NCBI GenBank assembly: GCA_964413645.1 | Contig: CAYPSA010000001.1 | Coordinates: forward strand, 159,129-223,128 | Origin: an uncultured Gammaproteobacteria bacterium | Lineage (GTDB): Bacteria; Patescibacteriota; Microgenomatia; UBA1406; HO2-37-13b | Reading direction: 5' to 3' | DNA length: 64,000 nt | Shown here: positions 1-30,920 of the stretch, one piece after another | Layout of the letters: each line of letters begins with the position of its first letter | Position numbering within the stretch: position 1 is the stretch's first letter | Program-made: the position numbers and the translations under genes | The notes under the pieces: model-generated | What the model saw: only the letters and a program-made list of their open reading frames with translations | What the model was told of the DNA's origin: nothing | Databases searched by the model: none

Positions 1-930
1 ATTGCGCGTGCGGCAGCAGAACAAGCCTTTAGTTTTTATGGCACTACGCAACGAGGATTGTTTGGACTAGATATGGTTCTCTTTATTGGTGCAAATCACG
101 TGGTCCGTGTTGAAGCACATTCACACATAGGAGGGTATTCTGGCCACATCGTTGAGGATCATCTAACTGGCATGCGATTTTATTCCAAACGGTGGAAGAG
201 TGTATATGTACCAGAAGTACTTGCAATTGGTGAAGGACCCGCTACATGGAGCGCTTACTTCGGACAACAAATGCGCTGGGCATATGGACTTATACATATC
301 TTATTAACGGAAAGTCCTCGTATATTTCCGACGATGAAAATAAAACATGCAATTAATTATTTTTTGTTACAGCAATACTACTTCGATGGAATTGCCCAAG
401 CAATTGGTATTTTCCTCTTGGTTCTATATTTCTTTTTTGGAATTAATGCTACTCTTATGCCTCTCAGACCATTGCTAGCATTTTTATTGCCGGTCATAAT
501 TTGGCAGCAGGTTATTTCTCTTTGGCTACAAAGATATAATATTAATCCGCGAGAAGAAAGCGGGTTGCTTTTAAAGGGAAAATTACTTAGTTTAGCGGCA
601 TGGCCTGTCTACTTCATGGCATTTTTAAGTGTTTTTGCTGGTAAACGATTAGGATATGAAGTGACTCCCAAAGGAAATGCGCAAATTCAAAAGATAGATC
701 TTTCATTGTTTTTACCCCACGTAATATTTGGAACTGCAACTGCCCTTTGTGTTATTGTGGGAATTTTGAATGATAATACGCCTCCCAATTTAATCGTTAT
801 AGCTCTTCTAAATACAATAGCAATGTATGGTTTTGTGAGCGTGGCTTTTTTGGATAGATTGAAACTGTGGTATCAAGAGAAGTTCATGCAAAAGAATTTG
901 AAGGTAGCAAGGACAACAGTACAAATCTGA
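1..930 (+). CDS. GT2 processive glycosyltransferase (cellulose-synthase-like), C-terminal part; the gene continues upstream of the window
   Basis: The frame is open from base 1. It carries a QxxRW motif (QQMRWAYG) followed by several TM helices, which is typical of GT2 processive synthases. Confidence 0.6.
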   Translation: MARAAAEQAFSFYGTTQRGLFGLDMVLFIGANHVVRVEAHSHIGGYSGHIVEDHLTGMRFYSKRWKSVYVPEVLAIGEGPATWSAYFGQQMRWAYGLIHILLTESPRIFPTMKIKHAINYFLLQQYYFDGIAQAIGIFLLVLYFFFGINATLMPLRPLLAFLLPVIIWQQVISLWLQRYNINPREESGLLLKGKLLSLAAWPVYFMAFLSVFAGKRLGYEVTPKGNAQIQKIDLSLFLPHVIFGTATALCVIVGILNDNTPPNLIVIALLNTIAMYGFVSVAFLDRLKLWYQEKFMQKNLKVARTTVQI

Positions 931-8307: not shown

Positions 8308-9387
8308 TTAGCGTTCACGCTTCAAGTGTTCACTTATATAGCGAACCTGGAAGGGAGTTAATAGTGGTTGACCTGCTTTTTGACGTGTGCGGACACTTTG
8401 TGAATTAGCCCATCTCATTAAGTTAAAACCATCGAAACTTGGGTCATGTCGAGCAAAGACTTGTTTGCCATTAACTACAGTTCCGGTTGGGATTAATTTA
8501 TCTGGTCTCTGGGGATCAAACGCAGCACGTGCTTCATCTTCAGTATATTGATGTCCAAATGTAAGTTCAGATGAAGTAAGCACTTTATCATACGTAATGT
8601 TATGTCTGTATCCATCGTCAAGTCCAAGTAAATGGCCACCCTCATGAAGTGCAACGTACAATGATTCCGGATTGTGTAAGGCAGTAAAAGCAATGTCGTG
8701 CTTGGTGGTATAATTTGTTGTGCCAAAAAAAATGTCAGTGTTAAGAAAAACTAGGGCTTTATCATAATTTCTACCTGTACTTTTCCGTATTGCGTCCATT
8801 ACGGCCTCAGATTCTTCTGGTCCTCTAACCAGTCGCTCATTAGCTCTTGTAAAAGGAATCGGTACAGGTTTTCTAAGATAAGAAATAGTAATGGGTAACT
8901 GTTCAAAGGCTTGCATAAATTCACGAGCGATATAATGAATTTTACAATTTTCCGATTCATCTCCATCAACCTGCATTAGTAAGATATGTGTATTCTCAGA
9001 ATGTGTTGGTCTACCATCTTGTTCAAAAAACAGAGCATCTTCAGAAGTTTGGTTGGTGCCCATGTCAACAAAGTCTGAAGCTTGAAAAGTTAGCTTTTGA
9101 AGAGATGCAATCTCCTGAGTATCCTGTGGCAAACAAATTATATCGGCGCCTGGTTTAGTGTCGTATGTAGTTTCTCCTACGCGCCCAGCAATATAAGAAG
9201 GTGGTCCATAAAAATCAGGAATGTCATAATGAATAGTTTCTCTAGAAACTGCTAAAGGTGAAAAAAGGGCTGCGCCTATAGCGCCTACTCGTAGCATTCG
9301 ACGTGCATTAATTGACTCCCTGACTCGTTTAAATTTAGTACTGACTGAGCTTTCTGGATTATTGGGAAGTGACTCAAGATGTGCCAT
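8308..9387 (-). CDS. metzincin-like zinc metallopeptidase
   Basis: HEGGHLLGLDDGYRH is an HExxHxxGxxD/H zinc-binding motif. The start is trimmed to the Met at 9387 because the upstream part of the ORF is made of tRNA-like repeats. A later Met at 9297 is followed by a signal-peptide-like MLRVGAIGAALFSPLAVS. Confidence 0.6.
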   Translation of the reverse strand: MAHLESLPNNPESSVSTKFKRVRESINARRMLRVGAIGAALFSPLAVSRETIHYDIPDFYGPPSYIAGRVGETTYDTKPGADIICLPQDTQEIASLQKLTFQASDFVDMGTNQTSEDALFFEQDGRPTHSENTHILLMQVDGDESENCKIHYIAREFMQAFEQLPITISYLRKPVPIPFTRANERLVRGPEESEAVMDAIRKSTGRNYDKALVFLNTDIFFGTTNYTTKHDIAFTALHNPESLYVALHEGGHLLGLDDGYRHNITYDKVLTSSELTFGHQYTEDEARAAFDPQRPDKLIPTGTVVNGKQVFARHDPSFDGFNLMRWANSQSVRTRQKAGQPLLTPFQVRYISEHLKRER

Positions 9388-9404
9388 GATTCTAAAAACA
9401 AGTT

Positions 9405-9708
9405 GCGCGACTGACCGGACTGCCAACCGGCGACCTGTCCGACAACTGTCGGACCGCTCTAACCAACTGAGCATATGTATGCGCGACTGACCGGACTGCC
9501 AACCGGCGACCTGTCCGACAACTGTCGGACCGCTCTAACCAACTGAGCATATGTATGCGCGACTGACCGGACTGCCAACCGGCGACCTGTCCGACAACTG
9601 TCGGACCGCTCTAACCAACTGAGCATATGTATGCGCGACTGACCGGACTGCCAACCGGCGACCTGTCCGACAACTGTCGGACCGCTCTAACCAACTGAGC
9701 ATATGTAT
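9405..9708 (-). repeat. four perfect 76-bp tandem repeats, each a tRNA-Asp-derived pseudo-tRNA
   Basis: The unit gcgcgactgaccggactgccaaccggcgacctgtccgacaactgtcggaccgctctaaccaactgagcatatgtat recurs at 9405, 9481, 9557 and 9633. Each unit keeps the D-arm, variable loop and T-stem of the adjacent tRNA-Asp. The anticodon arm is replaced by a perfect 7-bp stem with a 4-nt loop, the T-loop is 8 nt, and the 5' acceptor strand is degenerate. Confidence 0.9.
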
Positions 9709-9709
9709 G

Positions 9710-9783
9710 CGCGACTGACCGGACTCGAACCGGCGACCTTCCGCGTGACAGGCGGACGCTCTAACCAACTGAGCTACAATCGC
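9710..9783 (-). tRNA. tRNA-Asp(GUC)
   Basis: Acceptor GCGATTG/CAGTCGC, D-arm GCTC-AGTTGGTTA-GAGC, anticodon stem TCCGC/GCGGA with loop CTGTCAC, and T-arm GCCGG-TTCGAGT-CCGGT. Confidence 0.85.
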
Positions 9784-10040
9784 TTTAAAGATATTTTTTT
9801 ATTCGTAACTATTTTATCAATTATTTCCTTACTTTTAAGCTTTTTCAGGCTGCTCTCAATCCTACGTGCTTCAATCAAAGTTTCAAACTGCTGACAAAAC
9901 ACCATTGTAAATGGTAATGTTGATTTCGTTGCTTTCACTTTTCCTCTATTGTGCTCATCTAATCTTCGGTCGATATCACTCGATGAGCCAATATAATATC
10001 TCTTATTCTTATCTGACTGTAAAATATAAACGAAACTCAT
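9774..10040 (-). CDS. small GIY-YIG nuclease family protein (UPF0213/YhbQ-like, 88 aa)
   Basis: MSFVYILQSDKNKRYYIGSSSDIDRRLDEHNRGKV is a canonical GIY-YIG core. The ORF is AT-rich between GC-rich tRNA-like flanks, and its last codons AAG-CGA-TTG-TAG overlap the 5' acceptor stem of tRNA-Asp. Confidence 0.8.
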   Translation of the reverse strand: MSFVYILQSDKNKRYYIGSSSDIDRRLDEHNRGKVKATKSTLPFTMVFCQQFETLIEARRIESSLKKLKSKEIIDKIVTNKKISLKRL

Positions 10041-10097
10041 AACCGGCGACCTGTCCGACAACTGTCGGACCGCTCTAACCAACTGAGCTACAATCGC
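10041..10097 (-). repeat. partial pseudo-tRNA(Asp-like) copy: 5' acceptor, D-arm and pseudo anticodon hairpin, truncated at the T-stem where the GIY-YIG ORF starts
   Basis: GCGATTGTAGCTCAGTTGGTTAGAGCGGTCCGACAGTTGTCGGACAGGTCGCCGGTT is followed directly by the GIY-YIG ATG. Confidence 0.8.
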
Positions 10098-10139
10098 TTT
10101 GTTAAATTATACCATTTTTTATTCCAGTATAATAGAATA

Positions 10140-11906
10140 ATGCGTCCTTCCAACAAACAAATTGCTCACATTCTTCGATCGGTTGCTGCGGTATATGAAC
10201 TTAAAGGGGCGAATCGTTTTCGAATTATTGCGTACAATAATGCCGCGGATACGATTGATAATTTAAATAGGGAACTAGTTGATATTTGGGAGAACAAAGA
10301 ACTCTCAAAAATCGCAGGAATTGGATCGTCCATGACTGAGCGGCTTGCTGAGTATTTTGAAAAGGGAGATGATTCATATTTAATAAAAACGATTCAGGAG
10401 GTTCCGGCTCCTATTTTTGATTTAATGCGTGTACCAGGAATTGGGGTAAAAAAAGCGTTCAAGCTTGTATCAAATCTGCACTTAGAACAGTCTAAAGATA
10501 TATTTAGCGACATTATTGACCAAGCAAAAGCCGGAAATATTGCTCCACTTGATTCATTTGGTGAAAAATCGCAAGTAGAAATTATTGCAGCGGTTGAATT
10601 GTATGAAAAATCAAAGGGAAATGCAGATCGTATGCCATTACCTATTGCTCATGAACTGGCAATGGAGGTAATTGCGTACGTAAAAAAACATCCTCATGTT
10701 GGTGAAGTTGAAGCGCTCGGGTCACTGCGCCGATGGATGAGTACGATAGGAGATATTGATTTGGTTGCAATAGTGCCTACGGAGCATTTTGCATCGGTTA
10801 TCGAGCATTTTGTTAAATTTCCAGGAGCTGCCAAAATTGAAGCACAAGGAGAAAATAAGGCATCAATAATTTTGGCAAATGGTCGACGGATTGATCTGCG
10901 CGTCGTAGAGAGTGGGGTCTACGGGTCGATGATCCAGTATTTTACTGGTAGCAAAGCGCATAATATTAAGCTTCGAGAATTAGCGCTCAAAAAGGGATAC
11001 TCAATCTCCGAATACGGTATTGGCGATAAGAGCGAGAAAGGAACAATCGGACGGTCAAAAACATTTGCATCCGAAAAGGATTTTTATGAATATTTAGGTG
11101 TAGATTGGATTCCGCCTGAACTACGTGAAGGAACGAGTGAGGTTGATATTGCGGTTAAACACGAGATTCCGGAGCTCGTAAAAGTTTCCGATGTAAAAGG
11201 AGATTTTCATATACATTCTAATTACGATTTAAACACTTCTCACGATCTTGGCCACGAAAGCGTTGTCGACATAGCTCAAAAAGCTCAATCACTCGGTTAT
11301 GAATATATTGCAATTTCCGATCACAATCCTGCTCAAAATGTCCCTAAGGAGAAAGTAATTGAAATAATGAAAAAAAGATTCGAACATATGAAATCGCAAA
11401 AAACTGTAATTCCATGTTTTGTTTCGCTTGAAATAGATATTACTCCTAGCGGAGATCTTGCACTGCCCGAAGAAGCATTTAACTATTTAGATATGGCAGT
11501 CGTTTCATTGCACAGTTCATTTCGACAAAGTCGTACCGACATGACAAAACGAGTTTTAAAAGCGCTTTCACACGAAAAAGTAAAAATCTTTGGGCATCCA
11601 ACCGGTCGACAATTGGGTAAGCGACCTGAAGTAGATGTTGATTGGACGACTGTTTTTAAGTTTTGTAAAGAAAAAAATATAGCACTTGAAATTAATAGTT
11701 GGCCTGAACGGTTAGATCTTCCTGACATGCTCGTCCGTGAAGCAAAGGAGATCGGATGTAAATTCACCATCGATACCGATGCCCATGCTATCTCACAAAT
11801 GGATAACATGTTTTATGGCGTTTCCGTTGCACGTCGCGGGTGGCTTGACAAGAATGATATAATGAACTGTAAGGGGTATAAAGAAGTAGTTAAATGGATT
11901 GGCTAG
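10140..11906 (+). CDS. polX: DNA polymerase X family protein with C-terminal PHP phosphoesterase domain
   Basis: N-terminal HhH/pol-beta-like region followed by PHP motifs (HIHSNYD, DHN). TATAAT at 10128-10133 lies 6 nt before the ATG, so the mRNA is probably leaderless. Confidence 0.8.
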   Translation: MRPSNKQIAHILRSVAAVYELKGANRFRIIAYNNAADTIDNLNRELVDIWENKELSKIAGIGSSMTERLAEYFEKGDDSYLIKTIQEVPAPIFDLMRVPGIGVKKAFKLVSNLHLEQSKDIFSDIIDQAKAGNIAPLDSFGEKSQVEIIAAVELYEKSKGNADRMPLPIAHELAMEVIAYVKKHPHVGEVEALGSLRRWMSTIGDIDLVAIVPTEHFASVIEHFVKFPGAAKIEAQGENKASIILANGRRIDLRVVESGVYGSMIQYFTGSKAHNIKLRELALKKGYSISEYGIGDKSEKGTIGRSKTFASEKDFYEYLGVDWIPPELREGTSEVDIAVKHEIPELVKVSDVKGDFHIHSNYDLNTSHDLGHESVVDIAQKAQSLGYEYIAISDHNPAQNVPKEKVIEIMKKRFEHMKSQKTVIPCFVSLEIDITPSGDLALPEEAFNYLDMAVVSLHSSFRQSRTDMTKRVLKALSHEKVKIFGHPTGRQLGKRPEVDVDWTTVFKFCKEKNIALEINSWPERLDLPDMLVREAKEIGCKFTIDTDAHAISQMDNMFYGVSVARRGWLDKNDIMNCKGYKEVVKWIG

Positions 11907-27827: not shown

Positions 27828-27903
27828 GGGCCCATGGCGCAATTGGTAGCGCACCTCGTTTGCAACGAGGGGGTTAGGAGTTCGAATCTCCTTGGGTCCA
27901 CCA
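27828..27903 (+). tRNA. tRNA-Ala(UGC), CCA encoded
   Basis: Acceptor GGGCCCA/TGGGTCC with the G3:U70 Ala identity pair, anticodon loop TTTGCAA, T-arm AGGAG-TTCGAAT-CTCCT, and 3' ACCA. Confidence 0.85.
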
Positions 27904-27986
27904 ATTTAGGGGTAAGGAAGTAGTAATCACCCAGAAGGTGATTGCCAGTTCCTAACTTCTAAGTTTGTAAAAAGTCGCACATTAAC

Positions 27987-28001
27987 AATTAGCAGTATAA
28001 G
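27987..28001 (+). other. 5' strand of the pre-23S processing stem; it pairs with 30964-30978
   Basis: aattagcagtataag is the exact reverse complement of cttatactgctaatt, which lies downstream of the 23S. Confidence 0.6.
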
Positions 28002-28092
28002 GTAGAAAAGTCGCATCTAATTTTTTTTAATGTTTATATTTCCCGTGTTTGGGGAAATATATTCTGATTTGTGAGACATTGTCTCAAATTTT

Positions 28093-30920
<2,828 letters not shown>

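Follow-up and report, generated by a model that had tools for sequence, protein, structure and literature searches.

The window analysed here, 64,000 nucleotides (nt) of contig CAYPSA010000001.1, contains an open reading frame (ORF) for a small GIY-YIG protein that lies between a tRNA-like fragment and the gene for tRNA-Asp, with its stop codon inside the tRNA. What kind of element places a nuclease gene in such a position, and how would it persist there? A first-pass annotation, made from the letters alone, had read the arrangement as a GIY-YIG gene set into the T loop of a truncated tRNA-Asp-like copy. Our analyses revealed a nuclease ORF between a remodelled tRNA fragment and the real tRNA-Asp, a description in which we have high confidence. 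They also revealed three features that the annotation had not mentioned, namely a conserved palindrome module, the construction of the tandem array from that module and ORF-less scars in two relatives (loci L099 and L001).

Organization of the tRNA-Asp locus

All features of the cassette are on the minus strand; coordinates are window positions and the features are given in 5' to 3' order. The pseudo-tRNA leader upstream of the ORF is designated Psi5' and the pseudo-tRNA units downstream of the tRNA are designated Psi3'.

10106-10114, minus strand: extended -10-like box TGGTATAAT, about 8 nt before Psi5', read from the sequence.
10071-10100, minus strand: upstream copy of the 30-nt direct repeat AAAGCGATTGTAGCTCAGTTGGTTAGAGCG, with the second copy at 9757-9786; from the sequence and the comparison with locus L097.
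10041-10097, minus strand: Psi5', a 57-nt pseudo-tRNA leader that ends at T54-T55 directly before the ATG.
10053-10070, minus strand: hallmark palindrome GTCCGACA-GT-TGTCGGAC, 18 nt, in place of the 17-nt anticodon arm (tRNA positions 27-43) of Psi5'.
9774-10040, minus strand: GIY-YIG ORF of 88 amino acids (aa), ATG at 10040 and stop codon TAG at 9776-9774; from Pfam, PDB sequence matches, AlphaFold2 (AF2) and Foldseek.
9709-9783, minus strand: intact tRNA-Asp(GTC), called by ARAGORN and by the Rfam tRNA model (71.4 bits).
9405-9708, minus strand: four 76-nt Psi3' units in tandem, head to tail and 100% identical; from Tandem Repeats Finder (TRF), a repeat search and an identity check.
9665-9682, 9589-9606, 9513-9530 and 9437-9454, minus strand: Psi3' palindromes, one per unit.
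9390, minus strand: ATG of a 360-aa gene, after the array.

Psi5' is made up of the 5' acceptor strand, D arm, variable region and 5' strand of the T stem of tRNA-Asp, followed by T54-T55; its 3' end reads ...AGGTCGCCGGTT and the ATG comes immediately next. Alignment with the real tRNA-Asp revealed identity at 27 of 27 bases for positions 1-27 and at 12 of 12 for positions 44-55. The upstream copy is indeed a fragment ending in the T arm, as the first-pass annotation had it, but it is not simply truncated, since an 18-nt palindrome has replaced the anticodon arm, and because of this replacement Psi5' could never have decoded. The ORF begins at the T-loop breakpoint of the copy, directly behind a fragment that ends at 10041, and this border had been correctly placed by the annotation. 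So had the other border: the last codons, AAG CGA TTG TAG, share 10 of their 12 bases with tRNA-Asp positions 1-10 (9783-9774), and the stop codon TAG is U8-A9-G10 of the tRNA. The contrast in base composition noted earlier was also recovered, with a GC content of 31-32% in the ORF against 58-64% in the tRNA-like DNA and 39-40% in the window and the neighbouring genes.

Each Psi3' unit is built from a 7-8-nt linker, tRNA positions 10-55 with the palindrome, an 8-nt T loop, the 3' strand of the T stem and the 3' strand of the acceptor stem. In all four units the T loop is altered from TTCGAGT to the 8-nt TTGGCAGT, exactly at the point where the ORF breaks Psi5'. Psi5' shares a 48-nt stretch (tRNA positions 10-57) with each Psi3' unit at 100% identity, and a 31-nt pseudo-tRNA pattern was found five times in the window versus none in 100 shuffles. 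Neither Psi5' nor the Psi3' units were called as tRNA by ARAGORN or Rfam, which called only the real tRNA-Asp. Judged by this composition, Psi5' and Psi3' are remodelled copies of tRNA-Asp and not decayed ones.

The TGGTATAAT box occurs at an equal distance before the tRNA-Asp or its leader in L001, L097 and L099. It is presumed to be the promoter of tRNA-Asp, now driving the leader, the ORF, the tRNA and the array; a consensus scan gave further promoter-like sites near it.

The public annotation of the gene behind the array, P0152 (388 aa, window 8308-9474, minus strand), starts at ATG 9474, inside the pseudo-tRNA array. Its homologues have 359-361 aa and starts equivalent to ATG 9390, so that the first 28 residues of P0152 are translated pseudo-tRNA. 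The 360-aa protein carries an HEGGH motif, has only three homologues in 5.8 billion proteins and gave no match in Pfam, NCBIfam, PADLOC or PHROG.

A predicted minimal nuclease of the Slx1/UPF0213 type

A HMMER comparison of the 88-aa ORF with Pfam matched the GIY-YIG family PF01541 with E=1.5e-15 and 57.7 bits (cut-off 22.6). Residues Y5, Y16, R26 and E62 were invariant in an alignment of 30 homologues, and the whole 88-aa chain is taken up by the catalytic domain. Among solved structures, the closest phmmer matches were the UPF0213 proteins BH0048 (1zg2, 1.4e-6) and EF2693 (1ywl, 3.4e-6). The AF2 model computed on the 30 homologues had a predicted local distance difference test score (pLDDT) of 92.6, and Foldseek with this model gave UPF0213 and the Slx1 nuclease domain as the best matches. 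1zg2 was found with E=5e-4, and the Slx1 entries 6seh, 7cq3 and 4xlg with 28-33% identity and a root-mean-square deviation (rmsd) of 1.5-3.0 A (in the best matches 1.5-2.2 A over about 70 residues, with 30-33% identity), while the catalytic domain of I-TevI reached an E-value of only 0.35. In the sequence alignment of the 30 homologues there is no invariant Asn after E62, a C-terminal Asn being a trait of the UvrC/I-TevI lineage.

Pfam, PDB sequence matches and Foldseek agree with the earlier assignment to UPF0213-like GIY-YIG proteins. By sequence matches and predicted fold, the protein is a minimal GIY-YIG of the Slx1/UPF0213 type and not a member of the Seg/I-TevI homing branch, and the conserved residues suggest a working minimal nuclease. 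Known Slx1 enzymes are structure-specific nucleases. The bacterial Slx1-like or UPF0213 (YhbQ-type) proteins have had structures since 2005 and, to our knowledge, no known function. A minimal Slx1-like branch was defined within the GIY-YIG superfamily by Dunin-Horkawicz et al. (PMC1564403); the same survey describes UPF0213 domains fused to tRNA methyltransferases in some bacteria and does not mention linkage to tRNA genes.

Cassettes at tRNA genes in Patescibacteria

Homologues were collected in two ways. An exhaustive HMMER protein search gave 4668 cluster representatives with E<=1e-3, and the stricter limit of E<=1e-10 left 340. Metagenomes were covered by a pattern scan, which yielded 80 loci whose homologues are 43-60% identical; 67 of these loci are unique. 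A word-index protein search with the ORF matched only the protein itself, and an exact look-up returned no contig.

A tRNA gene was located within 40 nt of the ORF in 56 of the 67 unique loci, on the same strand in every one of the 56, with a tRNA density of 0.097 per kb elsewhere in the same loci. The tRNA linkage suspected from the window is therefore a property of the whole subfamily. The tRNAs concerned are most commonly Ala-GGC, followed by Ala-TGC, Ala-CGC, Gly, Ile, Thr, Val, Asp, Pro, Met, Lys, Arg and His.

Two layouts were distinguished. Type A (40 loci, the window included) has Psi5', then the ORF, then an intact tRNA; Psi5' matches the tRNA as far as positions 49-60 of the T arm, up to the T loop or into it, and the ATG follows a few bases on. 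The stop codon is formed by tRNA positions 8-10 (U8-A9-G10) in 30 of the 40 loci with a downstream tRNA, and in three further type A loci these positions are TGG and the same frame continues to the next stop. Type B (16 loci) is the mirror form, in which an intact tRNA is followed after 4-9 nt by the ATG, the ORF and a Psi3' segment. Here the stop codon is the TAG of the D-arm sequence TAGAGC in Psi3', the segment runs on through the palindrome, the T arm and the 3' acceptor strand, and a Psi5' is often present upstream of the tRNA as well. The cassettes measure about 0.3-0.6 kb, and their ORFs have no stop codon of their own and use conserved tRNA triplets.

About a quarter of the type A loci have at least one Psi3' tail unit after the tRNA: one in L096, L026 and L027, two full-length units in L063, two of 141 nt in L080, and at least five of 74 nt, together with a duplicated ORF, in L039, a Sanger GOS contig. 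Since tail units recur in this way, the array in the window is a recurrent feature and not an assembly oddity. Tandem ORFs were found in P0002 and L039. All breakpoints, whether ORF insertion points or unit boundaries, fall in D-loop or T-loop regions about 6-12 nt from the palindrome. Many homologues in the database begin with a stretch of translated tRNA, annotated as an N-terminal extension (...VAQLVER..., ...VAGSNPA..., ...RFES...). Read across these loci, the cassettes are compact and lie within tRNA transcription units of Patescibacteria, which points to a family of small selfish or tRNA-linked elements that is apparently undescribed.

Several observations on the tRNA genes themselves are of interest for annotation. 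ARAGORN calls palindrome-bearing pseudo-tRNAs (L063, 2376-2543; L049, 1933-2006) as tRNA with a 4-base anticodon (gtcc), as intron-containing tRNA-Pro or as tRNA-Val(tac), and pseudo-tRNAs probably contaminate the tRNA gene sets of Patescibacteria genomes. The annotation errors are of three kinds: pseudo-tRNAs called as tRNAs with odd anticodons, ORFs extended into translated tRNA and, in the window, a 360-aa gene started wrongly in the array. In L081 (1992-2823) two different GIY-YIG ORFs flank consecutive genes for tRNA-Ile(GAT) and tRNA-Ala(TGC), the second ORF being 27% identical to the query. tRNA-Ile and tRNA-Ala are involved in many loci, and the pair tRNA-Ile(GAT)-tRNA-Ala(TGC) is typical of rRNA operon spacers. 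The 23S rRNA gene of the window (28094-30919) has no insertion and is preceded by tRNA-Ala(TGC), with no 16S or 5S gene adjoining it within the window (region 27828-30919).

Allelic states in related genomes

The neighbourhood PolX, tRNA-Asp, (360-aa gene), LysM is conserved in Microgenomates-type Patescibacteria, and three allelic states (plain, scar and full) with the same tRNA-Asp sequence were recognized in it. The tRNA-Asp of the window is 100% identical to that of L001 and L099, and the same sequence is present in L097.

The plain state is found in L097, whose PolX is 83% identical to that of the window, and consists of the promoter, tRNA-Asp, 16 nt and the 360-aa gene. A plain tRNA-Asp is also present in the more distant L003, L005, L007, L010, L011, L013 and L014. 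The empty sites that an inserted ORF would leave in related genomes thus exist, in L097 and in seven more distant relatives. The scar state, an ORF-less leader, is found in L099 (PolX 93%, the closest relative) and in L001 (PolX 86%). This leader has the acceptor strand, a D arm whose loop holds an additional palindrome, then the hallmark palindrome (in L099 identical to the 18-mer of the window) and the junction ...GGACAG followed by TAGCAGAAA, after which the tRNA begins. In the frame of the ORF the 9-nt junction reads S-R-K before R-L-stop, versus S-L-K in the window, and it may be a remnant of the 3' end of the ORF, a likeness of a few codons that we regard as weak. The full state, with Psi5', ORF, tRNA and four Psi3' units, occurs only in the window; the array is absent from L001, L097 and L099. 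Further look-ups of L099-type contigs gave no new alleles.

Relative to the plain allele the window has two insertions only, one of 313 nt and one of 304 nt, and each lies between direct repeats derived from the tRNA. The first, composed of the ORF and the rest of Psi5', is bracketed by the two AAAGCGATTGTAGCTCAGTTGGTTAGAGCG copies. No recombinase or integrase gene was found near the two insertions, and both flanks are syntenic with L097 (PolX, 360-aa gene, LysM). The ORF is present or absent at a conserved site in related genomes, a polymorphism that is one of the traits of free-standing homing endonuclease genes (Seg/Mob type).

The 360-aa gene was considered as cargo of the cassette and rejected, its position being ancestral synteny in L097 and L099. 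Both of these loci keep the gene, while L001 (3186-3890) is without it and has the LysM gene directly after tRNA-Asp, so that the downstream flank of tRNA-Asp is also a site of gene loss. In L099 (3405-3788), and also in L100 and L106-L108, PolX and the tRNA-Asp promoter are separated by an extra 127-aa gene with no family match, a gene that the window, L001 and L097 lack. L006 has another ORF-less tRNA-Asp-like leader, about 100 nt upstream of its tRNA-Asp (locus positions 1-76, minus strand) and after the PolX-side promoter region. It consists of GGGGGCGTAGCTCAGTTTGG, a long hairpin and TTAGAGCGG..., and this hairpin is unlike the hallmark palindrome.

The hallmark palindrome

Hairpins with a CCGA..TCGG core occurred at 3.19 per kb between -150 and +250 nt of the ORFs versus 0.17 per kb in the rest of the loci, and most loci have a palindrome of this 8+2+8 class beside the homologous ORF. 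The dominant form, seen in 43 of 65 perfect cases, has 8-nt arms and a 2-nt centre, the arms being TCCCGATG, GTCCGATG, CCCCGATG, GTCCGACG or CTCCGACG. It occupies exactly tRNA positions 27-43, with G26 and A44 retained. Some pseudo-tRNAs have further palindromes in the D loop or T loop.

Covariation was analysed in 42 distinct palindromes selected only on seven perfect pairs and GC content. The CCG/CGG core was invariant and the outer pairs covaried (U-A 19, G-C 13, C-G 10). The eighth pair, beside the 2-nt centre, was complementary in 37 of the 42, although it was outside the selection criteria. RNA could not close a loop of 2 nt; the symmetry therefore suggests a palindrome at the level of DNA (dimer site or cruciform) more than a hairpin in RNA. 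The asymmetry between G-U and A-C mismatches, which bears on RNA- versus DNA-level selection, offered too few informative mismatches. Cassettes whose ORFs have reached saturation at synonymous sites still share the core, while the anticodon stems of real tRNAs vary freely, and for both reasons the palindrome is judged to be under selection at the sequence level.

No Rfam family matched the pseudo-tRNA module or its palindrome. Matches to the YrlA family (window 9509-9758; L041, 1751-1851) were below threshold, with 20-31 bits against a gathering score of 69; the signal comes from the T arm of one unit and the D arm of the next, and this candidate was rejected as chance-level. In principle, a palindrome arm of one unit could pair with an arm of its neighbour. 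Two other readings of the pseudo anticodon loop, as tRNA-Asn (GTT) or as a hidden group I intron, did not survive the parsing of the arm as 8+2+8 and the comparison with the published introns (PMC13011429). Within the 23S rRNA gene of the window, two CCGA..TCGG-type hairpins at 28662 and 29785 look like native helices.

Evolutionary behaviour of the ORFs

Only one of 64 complete ORFs had an internal stop, and the ratio of non-synonymous to synonymous substitution rates (dN/dS) was 0.09-0.27 wherever dS was measurable; by these measures the ORFs are functional and under purifying selection. For 27 of 56 ORFs the nearest neighbour was linked to the same tRNA species, versus 14% by chance. Switches of tRNA species also occur, for example between Met-CAT and Val-TAC at 74% amino-acid identity. 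A search of 2.9 million viral contigs gave three weak matches only, and a viral origin was rejected. From these patterns the cassettes are old and long-lived, gained and lost patchily, with no demonstrable current spread.

One apparent sweep was discarded. L029 and L031 have an identical ORF at 8% overall divergence, and this divergence was traced to a variable block in two close strains, a sharply bounded and highly divergent segment of about 430 nt (about 2362-2790) just downstream of the cassette tRNA-Ala.

A proposed break-and-repair cassette and its competitors

The reading that we favour, at slightly better than even confidence, is that of a small break-and-repair (homing-like) cassette that rides on a tRNA promoter, keeps a working tRNA and spawns tandem pseudo-tRNA units. 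The ORF is placed in the tRNA transcription unit in such a way that a complete tRNA remains, and the tandem units go with the ORF and are missing from the ORF-less alleles. Transcription would proceed from the tRNA promoter, which is conserved in all alleles, and the cost to the host would be little because a functional tRNA is left in place. The purine-rich 3' arm and variable region before the ATG could serve as a ribosome-binding site. Cleavage by RNase P at tRNA +1 would strip type A messages of their stop codon, and type B messages would come out of tRNA 3' processing nearly leaderless, so that tRNA maturation could throttle expression of the nuclease. The protein would break tRNA-like DNA, its candidate targets being the conserved tRNA boxes or the T-loop and D-loop sides of the palindrome. 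Homologous recombination, for which the tRNA-derived repeats would supply the arms, would then copy the ORF into related alleles and rebuild the tRNA, while repair templated by a neighbouring unit would yield tandem ORFs or tandem pseudo-tRNA units. The position of the TTGGCAGT change in the Psi3' T loops, at the very point where the ORF splits Psi5', fits such a course. Deletion by recombination between the 48-nt Psi repeats would be lethal because the essential tRNA lies between them.

Several points weigh against a homing-like cassette. Known homing GIY-YIG enzymes have a separate DNA-binding domain, and the protein has none. The intact tRNA within the cassette would stay a target if the enzyme reads tRNA boxes. 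Switches of tRNA species in which the flanks are identical to the new tRNA are not accounted for by the mechanism. Among the loci examined there was no pair of ORFs more than 90% identical in different flanks, and recent transfer is undocumented. L099 and L001 share the same ORF-less junction though L099 is closer to the window, and a single loss fits only if the tree of the locus differs from that of PolX; the shared junction implies either that the locus has its own history or that the ORF re-entered a site already carrying the palindrome. Finally, the fidelity of ORF lineages to tRNA species and the strong purifying selection would also fit a function long retained by the host.

The problem of self-cutting would be solved if the palindrome, and not the tRNA boxes, were the recognition site. 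We regard as doubtful, and put forward tentatively, the proposal that a minimal GIY-YIG enzyme, acting as a dimer, recognizes the palindrome and cuts on both sides of it at a distance of a few bases, where the D-loop and T-loop sites of all ORF insertions and unit boundaries lie. Landing pad and nuclease would then be self-contained and propagate in pseudo-tRNA DNA beside an essential tRNA, the real tRNA never being cut; with that tRNA between its repeats, the cassette would be safe from deletion. That such a palindrome-plus-nuclease logic is categorically new is likewise a tentative claim, to which we would give no great probability. If true, it would define a new class of mobile cassette without intron or recombinase and give the bacterial Slx1/UPF0213 proteins their first assigned biology, and an 88-aa nuclease with an 18-bp recognition site would be of practical interest.

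A function retained by the host is an unlikely alternative to the break-and-repair cassette. An Slx1-like structure-specific enzyme co-expressed with tRNAs could resolve hairpins, R-loops or stalled forks at heavily transcribed tRNA and rRNA genes, or process a tRNA-like transcript, with the pseudo-tRNAs as regulatory or substrate elements. The Slx1-like fold, the low dN/dS with almost no pseudogenes, the way in which ORF clades follow tRNA species with no recent transfers found, the near-absence from viral contigs and the UPF0213-tRNA methyltransferase fusions of some bacteria (PMC1564403) would all suit such a role. A housekeeping function should not be so patchy, however: the ORF is missing in the three closest relatives and in seven more distant ones with the same tRNA-Asp locus, and it is found at many different tRNAs in different genomes. 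The low GC content of the ORF, the ORF-less scars and the duplication of ORFs and units also speak against it.

Less probable still, and to our minds improbable, is an addiction or RNA-partner module in which the anticodon-less pseudo-tRNA RNA would bind and restrain the nuclease, as in type III toxin-antitoxin systems, or direct it, loss of the cassette being costly. A tandem array of identical structured units beside a small nuclease gene does recall such systems, the palindrome core is conserved far beyond the neutral expectation, and G26, A44 and the tRNA geometry are kept around it. Against this, GIY-YIG enzymes are deoxyribonucleases (DNases), and we know of none that is regulated by RNA. 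PADLOC gave weak matches to the GIY motif only, which together with the DNase fold does not identify a type III system. Tail units are present in only about a quarter of the type A loci, the complementary eighth pair at the 2-nt centre suggests a DNA palindrome and not an RNA hairpin, and the array lies downstream of the tRNA, unlike in ToxIN, where it is upstream of the toxin.

We consider it very improbable that the tRNA fragments are att-type duplications left by an integrase-borne island, or that a group I intron in the tRNA carries the ORF as its homing gene. Partial tRNA genes usually arise from integrating elements (PMC9897764), and group I introns are present in tRNA-Asp and tRNA-Asn of Patescibacteria (PMC13011429). 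At this locus, however, synteny with L097 is continuous on both sides, the extra DNA amounts to 313 + 304 nt without an integrase, and the duplicated portion is the 5' part of the tRNA. As for an intron, the tRNA-Asp is uninterrupted, an Rfam scan of 9300-10200 found no intron and only the tRNA and the chance-level YrlA match, and the 267 nt between the tRNA pieces are all coding.

An assembly artefact or a chance ORF is hardly credible, since the same architecture occurs in dozens of independent metagenomes, a Sanger contig included, and the ORF is a strong Pfam match in a conserved family, although the four units are 100% identical, short-read assemblers can mishandle repeats and the exact copy number of the array could be wrong.

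Comparison with known systems

A full-text literature search, with subscription journals outside its reach, turned up no account of tRNA genes with a fused minimal GIY-YIG ORF, nor of the pseudo-tRNA palindrome or the arrays. The nearest parallels lie in five known systems.

SegB is a free-standing GIY-YIG homing endonuclease encoded in the tRNA cluster of T4/T6-like phages (PMC2330249, PMC13096335). It cuts inside tRNA genes, with RAWTSGAAC as the reported motif, and both its catalytic activity and the phage recombinase are needed for a ladder-like tandem amplification of a tRNA-containing segment (PMC13096335). In our reading the reverse complement of this motif, GTTCSAWTY, matches the T-loop consensus GTTCGAAT. 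The two systems have in common a GIY-YIG gene among tRNA genes, the many tRNA isotypes involved and the tandem amplification of a tRNA or tRNA-like segment, here a 4 x 76 nt array whose dependence on the nuclease is suggested by analogy. They differ in that SegB is a two-domain phage enzyme of the I-TevI/Seg lineage, whereas the protein described here is an 88-aa domain of the Slx1/UPF0213 type whose family is found on chromosomes of Patescibacteria and hardly at all in viral contigs. SegB loci have no in-frame tRNA fusion, no partial tRNA leader and no hallmark palindrome. SegB is the closest working analogue, while membership in the Seg/I-TevI group fails on domain architecture and fold.

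With the UPF0213/YhbQ/Slx1-like proteins (1zg2, 1ywl) the ORF product shares fold, size, the closest sequence and structure matches and the absence of an auxiliary domain. The described members are treated as housekeeping or repair proteins, whereas here the gene is fused to tRNA genes and its presence varies among close relatives. The cassettes offer a concrete lead on this orphan family, with tRNA-shaped or palindromic DNA as a possible substrate.

GIY-YIG ORFs have also been reported from non-intron insertions in rRNA genes of the candidate phyla radiation (CPR), where they are sparse and were judged unlikely to spread by homing (PMC11270868). Phylum and situation are the same, a GIY-YIG ORF in a structural-RNA gene without a group I or II intron; those insertions, on the other hand, lie inside rRNA genes, and no tRNA context, pseudo-tRNA module or palindrome was described for them (PMC11270868).

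Partial tRNA genes made by integrases accompany inserts of 9-23 kb with an integrase and short identical att repeats (PMC9897764). As in those islands, a partial tRNA copy and a preserved intact tRNA bracket the insert; unlike them, the insert here is about 0.3 kb without a recombinase, the 5' part of the tRNA is duplicated and the anticodon arm is systematically remodelled. The group I introns in tRNA-Asp and tRNA-Asn of Patescibacteria lie at position 35/36, restore the tRNA by splicing and carry homing genes of the HNH type (PMC13011429). They share with the cassette the phylum, the tRNA species and the character of a selfish element that keeps the tRNA functional; here, by contrast, there is no ribozyme, and it is a partial duplication of the DNA that keeps the tRNA intact. 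Introns restore the host gene by splicing and integrases use att duplication. Beside these, the cassette appears to represent a third way to parasitise an essential RNA gene, by partial tRNA duplication, a borrowed promoter and a borrowed U8-A9-G10 stop codon.

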